NCBI GenBank assembly: GCA_033720975.1
Contig: JAWWBL010000001.1
Coordinates: 8,611-72,610 of the forward strand
Length of the DNA: 64,000 nucleotides
Source of the DNA: Acidimicrobiia bacterium
GTDB taxonomy: Bacteria; Actinomycetota; Acidimicrobiia; Spongiisociales; ZC4RG35
Direction: 5' to 3'
The translations under genes and the position numbers were made by a program. The notes under the pieces were generated by a model. It worked only from the letters and a program-made list of their open reading frames with translations, did not search any database and had not been told where the DNA came from. This document shows, piece by piece, positions 53,670 to 61,486 of the stretch (its first letter is position 1; the number at the start of each line of letters is the position of its first letter).

Positions 53670-54680
53670 ATGAAGGCGTGGCAGCTGACCGACACCAACG
53701 GCATCGACTCCTACGTGCTCAATGACGTGCCCGAGCCCGAACCCGGGCCGGGGGAGGTGAGGGTTGACATCAAGACCGCTGGGCTCAACCACCTCGACAT
53801 CTGGGTGTCGATGGGTCTCCCCGCACCCGAGCACCTTCCACACACCACGGGGGCTGACGCCGCGGGGACCATCGACGCCATTGGCGAGGGTGTCGACGGA
53901 TTCGAGATCGGCGACGAGGTGATAGTCGATCCCTCTCTGTCGTGCGGACGCTGCGAATTCTGTCTCAATGACGACATCGTCTACTGCGAGGACTTCGGGA
54001 TTCTCGGTGAGCACGCCCCGGGAACCTTCACAGAGAAGATCGTGATCCCCACGATCAACGCTGTCAGGAAACCGAAGAGGGTCGAATGGGAGGAAGCCGG
54101 AAGCTTTGGGCTGGCCAATGTCACCGCTCTGCGGAAGCTCGAGAAGGCAAGGCTGAGCAGAGGCGAGGTGGTGCTCGTGGTTGGGATCGGTGGAGGAGTC
54201 GCCACCGCCTCGATGCAACTGGCGATGGCGTTCGGAGCCAAGGTCTACGTCACCTCCCGATCCCAGAAGAAGATCGACTGGGCCGTTGAGAACGGCGCGG
54301 CGGGCGGATTCGACTCGGCCGGCGAGTTCGGCAAAGAGATGGCTGCTCTGGGTGGAGCGGACCTCATCATGGAGAACGTCGGGCCAGCCACCCTCAAGCA
54401 GTCGATGCGGGCTGCCAAGAAGGGGGGACGCATCGCCATCTCAGGTGGGACCAGCGGATCGAGATTCGAGCTCACCATCCCGATCCTGTTCTTCCGCCAA
54501 CTGGAGCTCGTGGGATCGTCCATGGGCAACCATGCCCAGTTCGCCAGGGCCCTCAACTGGATCAGGCTTGGCAAGGCCAAGGCAATAGTCGACCGCGTGT
54601 TCCCCTTCGACCAGCTACCCGAGGCGCTTCGTTATCTGGACTCGGGCGAGCAGATCGGAAAGGTCGTCCTAGCCCGCTAG
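53670..54680 (+). CDS. Zinc-binding alcohol dehydrogenase / quinone oxidoreductase (MDR superfamily)
   Basis: MKAWQL start, GEVRVDIKTAGLNHLD, structural-zinc Cys cluster CGRCEFC, and the Rossmann motif VVLVVGIGGGVATAS. The track ORF beginning at 53136 is a spurious extension overlapping the thioesterase. Confidence 0.8.
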   Translation: MKAWQLTDTNGIDSYVLNDVPEPEPGPGEVRVDIKTAGLNHLDIWVSMGLPAPEHLPHTTGADAAGTIDAIGEGVDGFEIGDEVIVDPSLSCGRCEFCLNDDIVYCEDFGILGEHAPGTFTEKIVIPTINAVRKPKRVEWEEAGSFGLANVTALRKLEKARLSRGEVVLVVGIGGGVATASMQLAMAFGAKVYVTSRSQKKIDWAVENGAAGGFDSAGEFGKEMAALGGADLIMENVGPATLKQSMRAAKKGGRIAISGGTSGSRFELTIPILFFRQLELVGSSMGNHAQFARALNWIRLGKAKAIVDRVFPFDQLPEALRYLDSGEQIGKVVLAR

Positions 54681-56023
54681 TTCAGAGAAGGCGCCTCGAC
54701 CGAGTACAGCTGCCACTCCCCGTCGAAGCCTTTCAAATGGTGGGATCCTCGATCGGCAAAGACGATGTCAGATCCCACGACCAGGTCACGAACCGTCCTA
54801 GAGACCATGATCTGGCCCGGTGCGGCCGCCGACATCACTCTCGACGCCAGGTGCACCGCCACACCTCCGACGTCGTCGCCCCGCACCTCAACCTCGCCCG
54901 CGTGGATACCGGTCCGAAGCGTGACATCGACCCTGGCTATCTCCCGGCTCAAGCTCTCAGCACAGCGGATCGCTCGTCCGGGGCCGTCGAAAATCGCCAA
55001 CGCTCCGTCGCCGGTGCTCTTGACCAATTCGCCGCTGTTGATCTCCACGATTCGTCGCGTGGTCGAGTCGTGCACATCGAGAAGGGCGCGCCACTCGCGG
55101 TCACCCAGTTGCCCGGCACGGCGGGTTGAGTCGACGATGTCGGTGAACATGACCGTCGCCAAACGCCGGTCGGTCACGCCTGGTGACGCTTCGGACCCCA
55201 CGACGAACTTCTCGATGATCGAGAGGACTTCGTCCGGGTGTTCCCAGTACGGAGTGGCGTCCGTGCCTTCGAGCTCGACGAATTCGGCGCCTTCGATGCG
55301 CTCGGCGACGTATCTGCCGAGCTCAATGGGGATCGCAGGATTGTCCTTGACATGGGTGACCAACGTCGGCACCTGGATCGCGGGTAGCAGCGCGCGTGCA
55401 TCGGAACTGAAGTTCTGCTGCATGTAGGCTCGCGCTGCGGCTGGGCTAGCCACCGAGCGCTGGACCTTCGCCATCCAGTTCATGAACGCACGGTCGCCTA
55501 CCTTGCTCGGTATCCAGAGGCTGGCGCCATCAGGTGTGCCCCATGCGTCACCGATCCTCCGGCTCAATTCCTCGACAGCGTCGGCGGGATACCCAATTGG
55601 GTAATCGTCAGTCGCGGAGAGGCGGGCATAGGTGCAATGGAGAACCAGGGAGTGCACTCGTTCTGGGTGATTGGCCGCAAAAAGCAGTGTGGTGGGTCCT
55701 CCATCGCCGCCACCCAAGAGGGTCGCGTTCTCGCTCCCAACGGCGTCCATCACGCATTCAAGCTCCTCGACAAATGACTCCCATGGGGGAAGGGCGTCGA
55801 GTGGGACTGGATCAGAAGCCCCCGAGCCTCGTCTGTCGAAAACGATCGTCCGGCCCAACCGAGACGCCTTCTGATAGAAGAGCCGGATTCCGGGGTCCTC
55901 CCACTCGATGTCGATGGAGCCCCAAAAACCTGCATTTACGACCAGGTCGGGCGGGCCCTCCCCCATCGTCATGTAATAGATGGCCTGATCGCCGAGGCGG
56001 GCGTAACCGGTTAGCGGCTCCAT
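54677..56023 (-). CDS. Alpha/beta-hydrolase domain fused to a class III adenylate/guanylate cyclase domain (LipJ-like architecture)
   Basis: N-terminal alpha/beta hydrolase fold (VFDRRGSGASD). C-terminal cyclase block VMFTDIVDSTRRA ... KSTGDGALAIFDGP. Confidence 0.8.
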   Translation of the reverse strand: MEPLTGYARLGDQAIYYMTMGEGPPDLVVNAGFWGSIDIEWEDPGIRLFYQKASRLGRTIVFDRRGSGASDPVPLDALPPWESFVEELECVMDAVGSENATLLGGGDGGPTTLLFAANHPERVHSLVLHCTYARLSATDDYPIGYPADAVEELSRRIGDAWGTPDGASLWIPSKVGDRAFMNWMAKVQRSVASPAAARAYMQQNFSSDARALLPAIQVPTLVTHVKDNPAIPIELGRYVAERIEGAEFVELEGTDATPYWEHPDEVLSIIEKFVVGSEASPGVTDRRLATVMFTDIVDSTRRAGQLGDREWRALLDVHDSTTRRIVEINSGELVKSTGDGALAIFDGPGRAIRCAESLSREIARVDVTLRTGIHAGEVEVRGDDVGGVAVHLASRVMSAAAPGQIMVSRTVRDLVVGSDIVFADRGSHHLKGFDGEWQLYSVEAPSLN

Positions 56024-56519: not shown

Positions 56520-57026
56520 CTAGTTCGAAGATCGTGATCTGTCTTCAGCCAAGATCTCCTCGATCTGGCCCAGCGCGCTGGTGATGCCCTCTTCCATTCC
56601 CATCTCGAGCACTTTCTCCATCGCCGCAGAGTTCTCGTATCGCGTCGTGATCGTCATGCGAGTGCGGCCGTCGCCCTGGTCCTCGATTGCAACCGTTGAC
56701 CTCGATATTGGGAGATCGACGTTCTCGGAACCGTCCTGGTTTGCGAAGTAATCCTCGAACTCGAGCAGATTCGGAGCCTCGACGCCCAACACGCGCCAAC
56801 CCCCATGGAACTTCTCCCCTTCTGGGGATGTCATGTAATAGCTGACAACTCCGCCTGCGGTGAGGTCGTGATGTACCACTGTCGCCGGGTGGGAAGGCGG
56901 CCCCCACCACCTCTCGAGCTGACGGGGATCGGACCAAAGTCGCCAAATCCGTTCTGTGGGGGCCTCGTACACGGCCGCAACAGTGAAGGTCGCGGAATCT
57001 CTGTCGGTTGTGACCGTCGGGGTCAT
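56520..57026 (-). CDS. SRPBCC-superfamily protein (AHSA1/activator-of-Hsp90-ATPase-like)
   Basis: FEAPTERIWRLWSDPRQLERWWGP motif. Classic genomic partner of ArsR regulators. A 4-nt overlap with the arsR-like gene. Confidence 0.7.
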   Translation of the reverse strand: MTPTVTTDRDSATFTVAAVYEAPTERIWRLWSDPRQLERWWGPPSHPATVVHHDLTAGGVVSYYMTSPEGEKFHGGWRVLGVEAPNLLEFEDYFANQDGSENVDLPISRSTVAIEDQGDGRTRMTITTRYENSAAMEKVLEMGMEEGITSALGQIEEILAEDRSRSSN

Positions 57027-57379
57027 CTCGTTTCTCCTTCGGTGAGTTGAGCAGCGAGGACTTCGCCAAAGAGGTTGATTCGATCTCGCCAGAGTTGCTC
57101 GATCTCGTCGAGGACCTCTCGTGCCGTGTCCAGGGCTCGGGGTTGGGGTCTGACCAGCTGTTCTCTGCCGCTCCGATGCTTACGAACCAAACCCGCTGAC
57201 TCGAGCACCGATACATGCTTCTGCACTGCAGTGACGCTCATGTCGTAGTTACGGGCCAGGGCCGAGACCGAGAGGTCGCCGATCGCGGCCCGCACGACGA
57301 TGTCCCTTCTGGTGGCATCGGCGAGGGCACGGAACAGACGATCCACCTCGTCGCTACTCAGAGCAGTATCTACAACCAT
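57023..57379 (-). CDS. ArsR/SmtB-family transcriptional regulator
   Basis: LFRALADATRRDIVVRAAIGDLSVSALARNYDMSVTAVQKHVSVLESAGLV winged HTH. Start set at the ATG centred in the 24-bp palindrome; the track ORF begins 6 codons earlier. Confidence 0.8.
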   Translation of the reverse strand: MVVDTALSSDEVDRLFRALADATRRDIVVRAAIGDLSVSALARNYDMSVTAVQKHVSVLESAGLVRKHRSGREQLVRPQPRALDTAREVLDEIEQLWRDRINLFGEVLAAQLTEGETR

Positions 57380-57391
57380 ATGGTTGTAGAT
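57368..57391. promoter_or_regulatory. 24-bp perfect palindrome ATCTACAACCAT|ATGGTTGTAGAT overlapping the arsR start codon; candidate ArsR operator
   Basis: Exact reverse-complement symmetry read directly from the sequence. Positioned at the 5' end of the arsR-SRPBCC operon. Confidence 0.6.
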
Positions 57392-57430
57392 AAGCACATG
57401 AGATGGATCATGTCAAGGGGGTTTGAAGTT

Positions 57431-58057
57431 TCACTCCTTGTCGACTTCCGGTGTCAATAGCCCGCTACGGCTCGCCCAGATCAACGCTTCGGTGCGATTG
57501 CGCACCCCGATTCGTGTGTACAGGCTCCTGAGGAGCCGGAACATCGCCCGCTCCGAGTACCCATTGTGAGCCGCCAGATCGGAGACGGTCTGTCCTTCCG
57601 CCATAGCCTGTAACCATCCAGCTTCATCGTCGGTCAGCCACCCCTCGAAGTCATCGCTGTCAGGCGTGGTCTCCGCCATGGCTCGTGCAAATCGATAGGG
57701 CAACGAGACCCGACCATCAAGTGCCTCACCGACCACAGATTGAAATCCTCGAGCGTCATCGTGCTCATCGACGACTGCTGCCGCGCCCGCCCTCATCAGC
57801 CTGGCGACGCGCCCAACTGACGGATCGTCGACAACCGCCACTACCGGAATGTCCTCATGAAGGTCGACATGAGCCTGGATCTTGCCTTCGTCTCCCCGGC
57901 CTTCGACGAGGGCCACGACCGCGCTCCCTCCGATCCCGGGCTGCCACACGTCCAAGGCTTCGAAGAACGCTGTCTCATAACCGCACTCCTCGAGCATCGA
58001 CGCCATACCACGACGCCATGCCTCGGATCCTCCGGCGACCGCGATCTTGTGGGACAT
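57431..58057 (-). CDS. LuxR-family transcriptional regulator with a degenerate N-terminal receiver-like domain
   Basis: C-terminal HTH LTDDEAGWLQAMAEGQTVSDLAAHNGYSERAMFRLLRSLYTRIGVRNRTEALIWA. N-terminal ~130 aa receiver-like fold lacking a clear phospho-acceptor context. Confidence 0.7.
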   Translation of the reverse strand: MSHKIAVAGGSEAWRRGMASMLEECGYETAFFEALDVWQPGIGGSAVVALVEGRGDEGKIQAHVDLHEDIPVVAVVDDPSVGRVARLMRAGAAAVVDEHDDARGFQSVVGEALDGRVSLPYRFARAMAETTPDSDDFEGWLTDDEAGWLQAMAEGQTVSDLAAHNGYSERAMFRLLRSLYTRIGVRNRTEALIWASRSGLLTPEVDKE

Positions 58058-58212
58058 CCATTGAACCTACCGCTTCGGCTCACGCTGGCAGACGACTGCC
58101 AAACACAGTCAGGTGCCCCTTGGGTCGCGTCATTGACCGGCAGGCTCATATGCCCCGAAGATCTACTCGTCGGCCTCGATTCCAATTGGTGGAATCGGAA
58201 AGGAGAAAAAAA

Positions 58213-59034
58213 ATGGCTGAAGAGTCAGCGACCGGAAAGGTACAAGAGAGTATCTCCGGTGTGTTGAAGGGAACCGGCGGAATCGTATCGGGCGCAGCTG
58301 ACGTCGCACGTGACGTCGCAGTGACCACGCTTGGAAACGCCAAGGATGTTGCGGGCGCGATCGGTAGCACTGCGTCCGGCATCGTGGGTGGCGCATTGCG
58401 TGCCGTTCAGGATGTTGGGACCGGCCTGGTCAGAACCGTGAAAGGTGTGATCGTCGGCATCATCGAAGGTGTTGGCGAGGTCGCGACGGTGTCTGCCGGG
58501 ACTATCGCGGACACGGTTCGGGCTGCCTTCCAGGGCACCCGTGACGTTGGCGAGAGCGTGACCCACACGGCGTCGGCAATCGCCGAGGGAGTCGTCACCG
58601 CCGCCAAGAGAACCGGGATCAGTCTCGGCGACGCGGCTCTCACCCTGGGCAAATCCGTCATTGGTGGTCTCGGGGAGATGACCAGCGAAGTGATGGGCGT
58701 CGCCAAGAGCACCGTTTCGGGCGTCGTGACGGGCGTTGCCGAAGTCGGTGCAGATACGTTGGAGGCCGTGAAGGCCACGACCAAGGGCATCATCTCCGGT
58801 GCCGGGGAGGTGGGTGCTGACATCGCCGAGGCGACGTCAGGCGCTCTTTCGGGTGCAATTGATGGCGCCAAGAAGGTGGGCCTCAGTGCCGAGGATGCGG
58901 TCTCCGCAGCTGCGGAAGGCGCTCTCGAAGCCGCCGAGGAGATCGGCGAGGCCGCGGTTCACGCGGTCCGCGACGTCGCCGCCAGTGGTGTTGATGGCGT
59001 GAAGGCCGTCCTCAAGGGCGATCAAGACACCTAG
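58213..59034 (+). CDS. Gly/Ala/Val-rich protein built of ~20 tandem 11-residue amphipathic repeats (apolipoprotein/alpha-synuclein-like 11-mer periodicity)
   Basis: Successive units VKGVIVGIIEG / VGEVATVSAGT / IADTVRAAFQG / ... / VRDVAASGVDG keep an 11-residue register. Preceded by an AT-rich leader GGAAAGGAGAAAAAAAATG. The track ORF 57685.. is a 5' extension. Confidence 0.6.
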   Translation: MAEESATGKVQESISGVLKGTGGIVSGAADVARDVAVTTLGNAKDVAGAIGSTASGIVGGALRAVQDVGTGLVRTVKGVIVGIIEGVGEVATVSAGTIADTVRAAFQGTRDVGESVTHTASAIAEGVVTAAKRTGISLGDAALTLGKSVIGGLGEMTSEVMGVAKSTVSGVVTGVAEVGADTLEAVKATTKGIISGAGEVGADIAEATSGALSGAIDGAKKVGLSAEDAVSAAAEGALEAAEEIGEAAVHAVRDVAASGVDGVKAVLKGDQDT

Positions 59035-59112
59035 CCACACAGAAGAGAGGTAGGGATTCCCTACCTCTCTTTCTCGTTGTTCAGCTCGGGCCCCCGCAGC
59101 CGGCTGTGGCGC

Positions 59113-59826
59113 CTAGTCAGCGATCGATTCGACGAGTTGACGGAATGCTCCCGCTGCACCGGAACGGATCGAAGGAGAATGCCCGAAGACTGCAACGCCA
59201 AAGTCCTGCTCCGCAAGGTGGCGAATGCTTGCGTCAATCAACGGCGTGGAACGGTTGAAGTAGCCGCGAACCACCTGGCCGCTCTTGGTCGCCTTGGCCG
59301 CATCTCCGACGAAAGCGACACCGCCGCCTCGACCCAGCAGATACGAGGTGTGCCCAGGTGTATGGCCGGGAGTGTCCAGCGGACGTAAGCCCCCAGGAAG
59401 ATGCAGTTTCGGGTCTTCGGTGACGAGGTGGTCCACCGTCACCGGATGGGCACGGGGGAGGACCTGCACGAGCCATTTGAACGGTAGGGCGTAGAACGGA
59501 ACGGGGGGCGCCGGCGTCTTCTCCTCACCCTGTATCGCCGGGGCATCGGCTCTGGAGGCGTACACCTCCGCGCCCGATTCGTCCTTGACGGCGGCTGCGT
59601 TGCCAGTGTGATCATTGTGGGAGTGGGTCAACACGATCGCGGTCACGTCTCCAACAGAGCGACCGATCCCGGCAAGGGCTTTCGCTATCAGCCCTTCAGT
59701 CCTGGGAAGACCCGTGTCCACGAGAACGATCCCCTCATCGCCATCAATGAGGAAGGAGTTAACTGGCGCAGAGCCGATTTGATATACACCGTCGACAATC
59801 GATTCAACTGCCACCAGATCCTCCAC
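59113..59826 (-). CDS. MBL-fold metallo-hydrolase
   Basis: LTHSHNDHTGN (HxHxDH) zinc-binding motif, plus downstream His/Asp ligands (DTPGHTPGH). Confidence 0.8.
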   Translation of the reverse strand: MEDLVAVESIVDGVYQIGSAPVNSFLIDGDEGIVLVDTGLPRTEGLIAKALAGIGRSVGDVTAIVLTHSHNDHTGNAAAVKDESGAEVYASRADAPAIQGEEKTPAPPVPFYALPFKWLVQVLPRAHPVTVDHLVTEDPKLHLPGGLRPLDTPGHTPGHTSYLLGRGGGVAFVGDAAKATKSGQVVRGYFNRSTPLIDASIRHLAEQDFGVAVFGHSPSIRSGAAGAFRQLVESIAD

Positions 59827-60481: not shown

Positions 60482-61486
60482 GTGTTCCAAACTCGCTGCC
60501 TCACGACGACACAGGCCCGCTTCCTGGATGCGGGGATTCAGCTCGAAGCGCGTAGACTGGTCCCACCCACTGCAAGGATTCCGTTGGCCAAGACCGAGAA
60601 GCTCGAACTCGTCAAGGCCATCGAGCACGAAGTCGAAAGACTCACCGCTGAGCACCTAGAGCGCCGCTCCGACTGGTACTACCACGACATCGTTCCCTGG
60701 GAGCGCGGAAAGAGTTACAGGGACAAGCCGTGGGATCCCTCCCAGGTGACCATTTCCGAGAACGCCAGAACGTCGCTCGTCCTCAATCTTCTCACCGAGG
60801 ACAACCTTCCCTACTACCACTCACTCATCGAGAAACACATGCCGAAGGGCTCTGCTTTCGTGCGGTGGAACCGTCTGTGGACCGCCGAGGAGGCTCAGCA
60901 CTCGATCGCGATCCGTAGCTACTTACTTACCTCCCGCAACACCGACCCCTACCAACTCGAAGATGATCGCAAGGCAACGATGATCAACGGTTACCAGCCC
61001 ACCTACGACGACCCCACCGAGATCTTCGCCTACACCGCGACCCAGGAATTGGCGACGCGGGTGAGCCATCGCAATGCGGGGAAGATCACCGACGACCCGG
61101 CCGCATACGAACTGATGAAGAACATCGCCGCAGACGAGAACCATCACTTCATCTTCTACAAGGAGGTGATGCGGGCCATGCTCGACCGCGCCCCTCAGCT
61201 AGTCCTCGACAGCATCTTCCGCGTGTTCGACAACTTCGAGATGCCTGGCGTCGCCATGCCCAACTTCTTGCGTCGATCGATTCAGGTGGCCAAGGCCGGG
61301 GTCTACAACCTCCGCATCCACCACGACCGTGTGCTCACGCCGCTGATCAAAGATTGGGGGATAGCCCGCCTATCCGGTCTAACCCCGCATGCGGCCGAGA
61401 TGCAGGAGAAGATCATGGCGCTGCCCGACCTGATAATGCGCAAAGCCGAGGTCTTCGAGAAGCGGGTAGGGCTGGGCTATGCCTGA
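60482..61486 (+). CDS. Acyl-[acyl-carrier-protein] desaturase (soluble di-iron desaturase, DesA-like)
   Basis: Di-iron ligand helices with EExxH-type motifs (WTAEEAQHSIAI; AADENHHFIFY) and overall similarity to stearoyl-ACP desaturase-family layout. Start uncertain. Confidence 0.75.
   Translation: MFQTRCLTTTQARFLDAGIQLEARRLVPPTARIPLAKTEKLELVKAIEHEVERLTAEHLERRSDWYYHDIVPWERGKSYRDKPWDPSQVTISENARTSLVLNLLTEDNLPYYHSLIEKHMPKGSAFVRWNRLWTAEEAQHSIAIRSYLLTSRNTDPYQLEDDRKATMINGYQPTYDDPTEIFAYTATQELATRVSHRNAGKITDDPAAYELMKNIAADENHHFIFYKEVMRAMLDRAPQLVLDSIFRVFDNFEMPGVAMPNFLRRSIQVAKAGVYNLRIHHDRVLTPLIKDWGIARLSGLTPHAAEMQEKIMALPDLIMRKAEVFEKRVGLGYA

Follow-up and report, generated by a model that had tools for sequence, protein, structure and literature searches.

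What does a bacterium do with a protein that is little more than a short repeat? The question is raised by positions 57431-59034 of a 64-kb stretch of Acidimicrobiia DNA (the window; all coordinates are positions in it), where two divergent genes lie on either side of a 155-nt spacer. One encodes a 273-aa protein made of tandem 11-residue units (the repeat protein), the other a LuxR-type regulator. A first reading made from the letters alone (the sequence-only reading) had put the repeat protein forward as a candidate stress- or lipid-body-associated protein of no recognised family. The answer preferred here, tentatively and at somewhat below even chances, is that the repeat protein folds into helical repeats and serves as an adaptor or output module in receiver-domain signalling, under the control of the adjoining regulator. 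Three features are needed from the outset:

57431-58057, minus strand: divergent regulator gene, 208 aa, with a NarL/FixJ response-regulator fold (LuxR-type helix-turn-helix) and a degenerate receiver

58213-59034, plus strand: coding sequence (CDS) of the repeat protein, 273 aa and a stop, predicted to form twelve 22-residue helix-turn units of two 11-residue hendecads each

58738-59016, plus strand: most conserved, C-terminal part of the repeat domain (residues 176-268), common to the family members of about 190 aa and the site of the Pfam Phasin_2 matches

The plus-strand frame is coding and under purifying selection. Its codon-position GC (0.69/0.53/0.71) favours this frame and resembles that of the adjacent genes, and comparison with an 88%-identical orthologue in a related locus (L018) gives a dN/dS of 0.105, with 95 of the 131 nucleotide differences at third codon positions. 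On these two results a non-coding frame or a gene on the opposite strand is rejected, outcomes that the sequence-only reading had named among those fatal to its proposal. The identical 273-aa protein is also encoded on a 157-kb metagenome scaffold, and the product of the adjacent regulator gene is assigned by NCBI to an Acidimicrobiia metagenome-assembled genome. Antisense open reading frames (ORFs) of up to 154 aa lie over the gene (e.g., 58407-58871, minus strand), and in the GC-rich related loci such frames mislead a simple longest-ORF caller; genes in those loci were called by the conservation of ORFs across loci. The long antisense frames are by-products of the GC-rich repeat, and they appear conserved between loci only because the sense strand is.

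Laid out in rows of 11, the protein holds a single register across 25 rows with no insertions or deletions, far beyond chance, which bears out the tandem 11-residue units originally described. The dominant period is 22: residue-identity autocorrelation is strongest at lags 22 and 44 (z = 5.1 and 4.9) and weak at lags 11 and 33 (z = 2.3 and 2.0), and the true unit is therefore a 22-mer of two 11-mers. The units had been said to begin with valine, alanine or isoleucine and mostly to end in glycine. Valine, alanine, isoleucine or leucine does open 20 of the 25 units; glycine is found at the closing position in 11 of the 25, with serine or alanine in most of the rest, so that this half of the description holds only in part. 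Within the hendecad, positions 2, 3, 6, 7, and 10 are hydrophobic, position 5 is mainly glycine, position 9 is glycine, alanine or threonine, positions 1 and 8 are acidic, and position 11 is basic.

This arrangement gives the amphipathic 3-11 helix pattern that had been anticipated. Hydrophobicity power reaches 415 at 98.18 degrees, the angle at which 11 residues complete 3 turns, where the 99th percentile of the shuffle maxima is 75, and is only 30 at 100 degrees; drawn as a 3-11 helix, the 273 residues have a hydrophobic moment of 0.32, a hydrophobic fraction of 0.45 and a bulky fraction of 0.004. The DNA of the CDS, for which a check of 33-nt periodicity had been suggested, is periodic at lag 66 (z = 4.5 against codon shuffles). 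Tandem Repeats Finder detected no DNA repeat array in the locus, apart from a 12-nt, 2.8-copy stretch within the CDS, and the repeats are therefore ancient. That stretch (58293-58325, plus strand; consensus CGCAGTGACGT) encodes DVARDVAV, and is the gene's only trace of recent duplication. In composition the protein is rich in V, A, G, and T (glycine makes up 16%), with one aromatic residue, a grand average of hydropathy (GRAVY) of +0.41 and a charged fraction of 0.20. It is acidic (net charge -14, pI 4.55), and neither a signal peptide nor a transmembrane segment was found in it.

How such a chain might fold was modelled with AlphaFold2. Given an alignment of 60 sequences, it predicts twelve antiparallel helices (predicted local distance difference test score, pLDDT, 92; predicted template-modelling score, pTM, 0.89). 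The modelled helices are about 13-23 residues long, mostly 17-19, and are joined every 22 residues by 3-4-residue turns at [DE]-V-G-x-[DS]. The best Foldseek match to this model in the PDB is a designed crystal-forming protein, 8cwy_A (TM 0.76, query-normalised, over 278 columns; E = 4e-6), and next come DHR4 (5cwb) and DHR7 (5cwd), both designed helical repeat proteins; natural repeat proteins match it weakly. A search of the PDB by sequence likewise returned a lone designed helical repeat protein, at E = 0.14. The predicted structure shares with 8cwy_A, DHR4, and DHR7 its short helices, which are regular and some 19 residues long, its 3-4-residue loops, its idealised geometry and its freedom from insertions. 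Unlike them it belongs to a natural protein, which is 17-21% identical to the designs and has mid-helix glycines and an exact hendecad pattern, and the likeness rests on an alignment-dependent prediction.

Conservation provides a second view of the fold. Among 93 aligned C-terminal domains, the most conserved columns are the turn glycine (73-87%), the turn cap (D/N/S) and a mid-helix glycine at position 16 of the 22-mer (90-97%), while an alanine-rich helix at residues 226-244 is conserved on all its faces. These features fit tight helix packing better than they fit a lipid-facing helix. The exact phase of the hydrophobic pattern across the turns follows automatically from a 22-residue unit, and so cannot discriminate a solenoid from an extended helix.

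The repeat protein belongs to a widespread family. An exhaustive phmmer search of 1.84 billion representative sequences found 359 at E <= 1e-3 and 42 at E <= 1e-10, most of them aligning to query residues 160-270. A word-indexed search, in which low-complexity words swamp the candidates, gave at least 2 matches from the single sequence and at least 6 from a profile, and a scan of a genome collection with a 12-sequence alignment confirmed at least 7 loci. The 11/3 hydrophobic signal is present in all family members. The commonest form is about 190 aa long, with a C-terminal I-S-G-V-K-V-V-L-K-E-P-F, and the genomes with members include Dehalococcoidia and Chloroflexia (Chloroflexota), Syntrophaceae, Eisenbacteria, Omnitrophota, and Acidimicrobiia. 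As a family it is absent from the profile libraries searched (Pfam, NCBIfam and PADLOC), and is best seen among the helical repeat proteins. NCBIfam had nothing for the repeat protein itself, nor had PADLOC, which gave no sign of a defence system. No description of the family was found in the literature on 11-mer repeats, YihY/BrkB, phasins, and hendecad or glycine-zipper repeats.

The link to signalling comes from the fusions and neighbours of these proteins. Among the 60 family members over which domain fusions and Phasin_2 matches were counted, 3 carry a receiver (REC) domain, N-terminal in P0003 and C-terminal in P0024 and P0021; the three fused RECs form one subfamily (39-41% identity). 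Every source-given name seen in the family is “hypothetical protein,” except for one REC fusion that takes the name “response regulator transcription factor” from its receiver; no DNA-binding domain was found in P0021, whose cluster bears this name at NCBI. In an Omnitrophota genome a single-domain REC gene is followed, after a 19-bp gap, by the repeat gene, behind which come a PAS/GAF histidine kinase and then a sigma-54 response regulator, and histidine kinase genes also follow the repeat gene in L019 and L021. Two of the REC fusions have further neighbours. A gene for a KaiC-like double-domain ATPase stops 1 nt short of the gene for P0003, a REC-repeat fusion (L004, 4476-7329, plus strand), a gap that suggests translational coupling. 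The gene for P0021 stands between GlgE and TreS-Mak / MalQ within an apparent operon for the conversion of trehalose to alpha-glucan, in a Dehalococcoidia metagenome-assembled genome (MAG), with gaps of 82 and 36 nt (L023, 2937-10912, plus strand).

Receiver-domain signalling is the recurring theme of these contexts, and YihY a second link. In 6 of the 60 members the repeat domain is N-terminal to a YihY/BrkB membrane domain (Virul_fac_BrkB; best E = 5e-43). The repeat domains of P0022, P0038, P0092, and P0110, whose C-terminal halves are Virul_fac_BrkB, match the query at E = 5e-13 to 1e-7, and a YihY/BrkB fusion is carried by L017. Three genomes of Dehalococcoidia, the only ones in which such adjacency was seen, have a yihY/brkB gene directly downstream of the repeat gene and in the same orientation. 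Neither yihY (by tblastn) nor kaiC nor a related REC sequence was found in the window.

The window does hold a receiver-like protein beside the repeat gene: the divergent regulator. By itself its sequence gives a sub-threshold match to GerE (E = 0.0018; 18.3 bits, with a gathering threshold of 23.5). When 35 homologues are combined in a profile, it matches ChrA over its full length (E = 4e-18), VraR, DevR, and NarL, as well as the helix-turn-helix domains of ComA, DevR, NarL, TraR-class proteins and RhlR; at this level the LuxR-family assignment of the sequence-only reading is confirmed. Homologues are named “NarL/FixJ family response regulator” by JGI, and PF00196 is precomputed for several. 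The regulator resembles ChrA, VraR, DevR/DosR, and NarL over its full length, with a receiver fold and a C-terminal helix-turn-helix. Unlike these, its subfamily is without the acidic pair and the phospho-acceptor Asp throughout: in the profile alignment with ChrA, the DD pair is replaced by GG or similar, the phospho-Asp falls at a non-acidic, unconserved position, and the conserved receiver Lys is not seen in the subfamily. The loss of these residues marks it as an atypical regulator that is probably phosphorylation-independent.

The divergent pair recurs in three related loci, with identities for the repeat protein and regulator, respectively, of 88 and 70% in L018, 68 and 47% in L019, and 56 and 43% in L020, and a spacing of 156-221 nt. 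In L020 (2954-3779, minus strand) the repeat gene is split into ORFs of 65 and 180 aa, matching query residues 1-55 and 96-273; either this is a pseudogene or there is an assembly or frameshift error. Just beyond the regulator in the window (56520-57397, minus strand), there is a gene of the ArsR helix-turn-helix type (124 aa), which shares 4 nt with the start of one of the AHSA1/SRPBCC type (168 aa). The regulator homologue in L019 is likewise followed by an AHSA1 gene, so that the neighbourhood is partly conserved.

Whether the regulator might control the pair is a question for the spacer and the regions around it, which have the following features:

58086-58101, no strand: perfect inverted repeat TGGCAGACGACTGCCA (TGGCAG-N4-CTGCCA), a candidate operator of the adjoining regulator

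58129-58143, plus strand: conserved box GTCATTGACCGGCAG, containing a -35-like TTGACC (58133-58138) and a GGCAG half-site, with hardly any variation among the four spacers compared

58157-58162, plus strand: putative, weak -10-like hexamer GAAGAT, 18 nt after TTGACC

58177-58197, plus strand: possible 8-bp hairpin (CGATTCCA / TGGAATCG, 5-nt loop) in the presumed 5′ leader, a weak candidate that ends at the Shine-Dalgarno sequence

58197-58205, plus strand: Shine-Dalgarno sequence GGAAAGGAG, 7 nt before the ATG of the repeat gene, conserved in L018 and L020

59042-59082, plus strand: intrinsic terminator with a 14-bp stem, 3-nt loop and T-rich tail

The palindrome sits 29-44 nt upstream of the regulator ATG and about 40 nt upstream of the -35-like box of the repeat gene, and it occurs once in the window. 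It is kept in the L018 and L019 spacers, and with one mismatch in that of L020, the most distant, in a set of four spacers only 56% identical overall; among 20 loci compared, it was found in no place other than these spacers. It is probably bound by the regulator. The TTGACC box may be read as part of a promoter for the repeat gene, the -10-like position being GATGAT, GAAGAA or CATGAT in the other spacers; a strict consensus scan detected no sigma-70 site in the spacer, these two boxes included. The terminator lies directly 3′ of the repeat gene, which is thus monocistronic.

Little else distinguishes the spacer. The leader hairpin (-12.5 kcal/mol, z = -2.0) is kept in L018, and single-sequence leader hairpins reach z values of only -0.8 to -2.0; RNAalifold gave no consensus leader structure across the four loci, and Rfam nothing above noise in 57300-59300. 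The leader had been called strikingly AT-rich, which overstates the case. The spacer is 55.5% GC, with a window mean of 62.2%, and the 150 nt 5′ of the ATG (56% GC) lie at the 4.5th percentile among 150-nt windows, which is nothing unusual for a promoter region between genes. The final 60 nt alone stand out (48% GC, 1st percentile), owing to an A8 run and the Shine-Dalgarno sequence.

Taken together, these observations suggest the following arrangement. The repeat protein would be a cytoplasmic, acidic protein whose 22-residue units stack into an alpha-solenoid, every unit having a helix of about 19 residues that ends in a [DE]-[VI]-G-x-[DS] turn. Its packing faces would be the 11/3 hydrophobic stripe and a stripe of small mid-helix residues (G/A-xxx-G/A). 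Partners of the family would be receiver domains and, in some lineages, YihY/BrkB membrane proteins; in the Acidimicrobiia clade the partner would be the divergently encoded NarL/FixJ-type regulator, with its phosphorylation site lost. The regulator probably controls both genes through the TGGCAG-N4-CTGCCA palindrome in their shared spacer, and the repeat protein may bind its pseudo-receiver as a non-phosphoryl input, thereby feeding back on it.

Several points weigh against this reading, beginning with the status of contact between the repeat protein and receiver domains as a proposal. Without an alignment, AlphaFold2 gives five long helices at a pLDDT of 53 and a pTM of 0.34, so that the solenoid depends on covariation; alignments of repeats may distort this signal, since a register shift can produce false contacts. 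A glycine content of 16% is high for stable helices. The gene contexts are mixed (some include yihY, kinases, KaiC or trehalose/alpha-glucan genes and others lack them all, and the window itself has neither yihY nor kaiC), and they come from a sample of about 15 loci that has no background frequency, receiver and kinase genes being very common. Finally, P0162, a close relative from another Acidimicrobiia MAG, has no adjacent regulator; this is a protein of 120 aa consisting of the C-terminal domain part only, 62% identical over 41% of the query.

If the adaptor reading is nevertheless correct, a widespread bacterial family without a description in Pfam, NCBIfam or PADLOC would have, by nature, a near-ideal geometry otherwise known from designed repeat proteins. 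It would recur as a partner of receiver domains in three ways: through fusion at one end or the other of the repeat domain, through adjacent genes, and through pairing with a pseudo-receiver regulator. The family would then be a new output or adaptor module for two-component signalling, and would offer a first way into the function of the YihY/BrkB membrane proteins, which are an orphan family.

The main rival, though an unlikely one, is an exchangeable lipid-surface protein: a soluble hairpin stack, or a disordered chain, that would open into a long 3-11 helix on a membrane, lipid droplet or polyhydroxyalkanoate (PHA) granule. The hydrophobic stripe is coherent over all 273 residues, as the power and moment given above indicate, and the long helices drawn by AlphaFold2 from the single sequence would suit such a state. 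The physical resemblance to known lipid-binding helices is genuine. Moment and hydrophobic, bulky, and charged fractions are 0.30, 0.47, 0.02, and 0.24 for alpha-synuclein and 0.257, 0.35, 0.002, and 0.15 for perilipin 4 (PMC5889406, Table 1), values near those of the repeat protein. All three have 11-mers free of insertions and deletions, small hydrophobic residues (V/A/T), much glycine, few aromatics and a similar moment. The repeat protein differs from the other two in matching neither by profile, in a higher-order period of 22 rather than 33, in its conserved turns and predicted compact fold, and in being bacterial and cytoplasmic, with no lipid-body context found. From perilipin 4 it also differs in charge, the amphipathic region of that protein being basic (pI 9.56), and a net charge of -14 would be unfavourable on anionic bacterial membranes.

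Exchangeable apolipoproteins offer a further parallel, being helical bundles that open on lipid. With this class (the 22-mers of apoA-I, the helix bundle of apoLp-III) the repeat protein shares 22-residue amphipathic units of two 11-mers with helix breakers between, and in its punctuated 22-mers the repeat protein recalls apolipoprotein A-I in particular. Period-preserving shuffles even touch the ApoLp-III, Apolipoprotein, and Phasin models weakly. Against this, the real sequence matches neither apolipoprotein model at E <= 1, its punctuation is G-x-D rather than Pro, and its charged fraction of 0.20 compares with 0.35 for apoA-I (PMC5889406). The Pfam profiles for perilipin, synuclein, and LEA/LEA_4 also fail to match at E <= 1.

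The phasins need separate treatment, for here the statement that the protein has no recognised family motif was wrong on its face. Residues 176-267 match Pfam Phasin_2 (PF09361) at 31.5 bits (E = 2.2e-7), above the gathering threshold of 24.9, and phasins too have alanine-rich amphipathic helices. The reversed sequence, however, still scores 20.3 bits, and 16-23 bits are reached by five of six period-preserving column shuffles, in which each column of the 11- or 22-residue register retains its composition, so that the real sequence exceeds these controls by only 8-15 bits; none of three full shuffles matches. Most of the score is therefore due to the periodic, alanine-rich amphipathic pattern and not to specific homology. 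Only 4 of the 60 family members match Phasin_2 (E <= 0.01), and no phaC/phaR or other PHA genes, nor any for wax-ester or triacylglycerol synthesis, were found by Pfam among the called genes within 10 kb on either side. A true phasin is rejected on the shuffle and reversal controls. Automatic pipelines would give the repeat protein this name by way of Phasin_2, and the same controls make the label unsafe.

Two kinds of context touch the lipid-surface reading as well. In some relatives the domain shares a chain with the membrane protein YihY/BrkB or has its gene as a neighbour, and L005 has a gene of the patatin family immediately downstream, in the opposite orientation. In the window, an acyl-ACP desaturase gene (FA_desaturase_2; 60482-61486, plus strand) lies 1.4 kb downstream and a ketoacyl synthase gene about 10 kb upstream; both belong to lipid metabolism, and neither is linked to the repeat gene in related loci. 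The position-specific Gly/Ala residues, the helix conserved on all faces and the compact alignment-based model argue for a fixed fold and against the opening of the protein on lipid. Of the original proposal of a stress- or lipid-body-associated protein, then, the amphipathic periodicity survives, while profiles, composition, predicted fold and gene context do not support it, and nothing specific speaks in its favour.

A composite of these readings can also be imagined, and appears a little less likely again. The family would be a convergent bacterial counterpart of the apolipoproteins, perilipin 4, and alpha-synuclein, with a change from hairpin stack to 3-11 helix on lipid that is tied to receiver signalling and coupled to YihY/BrkB. 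In that case the exact 2 x 11 register would serve to hold the hydrophobic stripe straight once the protein has opened, and would not be a by-product of duplication.

Of much the same low probability is a role as a cytoplasmic accessory or gating domain of YihY/BrkB proteins, a reading that overlaps both the adaptor and the lipid-surface ones; here the repeat protein would work in trans, on a YihY protein whose gene lies in another part of the genome. The six N-terminal fusions, that in L017, and the three Dehalococcoidia gene pairs are the evidence for it. Arguments against it are that yihY was found neither in the window nor beside the Acidimicrobiia, Omnitrophota or Eisenbacteria members, and that most family members stand alone. 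YihY is itself an orphan in substrate and function, for which a 2026 preprint only proposes a structural relation to the mitochondrial carriers.

A stress protectant of the LEA/hydrophilin type, or a trehalose-linked effector acting under desiccation, osmotic or cold stress, is improbable. The group 3 LEA proteins do have an 11-mer periodicity, and trehalose-related genes occur near two family members (GlgE, TreS-Mak, and MalQ around P0021, and a TreT gene near P0060). These are the only two such loci, the LEA_4 profile is unmatched, and a compact fold is predicted. A LEA protein or hydrophilin in the strict sense is rejected, the GRAVY of +0.41 and charged fraction of 0.20 being the opposite of what a hydrophilin has.

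Very improbable, lastly, is a fibrous hendecad coiled coil, with long helices in a straight or right-handed oligomeric bundle like the tetrabrachion-type 11-residue repeats, because the exact 11/3 periodicity that is its signature, and the long helices of the single-sequence model (at a pLDDT of just 53), are set against conserved G-[GA]-[DNS] turns every 22 residues, the high glycine content, and an alignment-based model that confidently breaks the chain at each turn.

Farther along the window on the regulator side (54677-56023, minus strand) is a gene for a 448-aa fusion of an alpha/beta-hydrolase and a class III adenylate/guanylate cyclase (Pfam Abhydrolase and Guanylate_cyc; ENA gene call).

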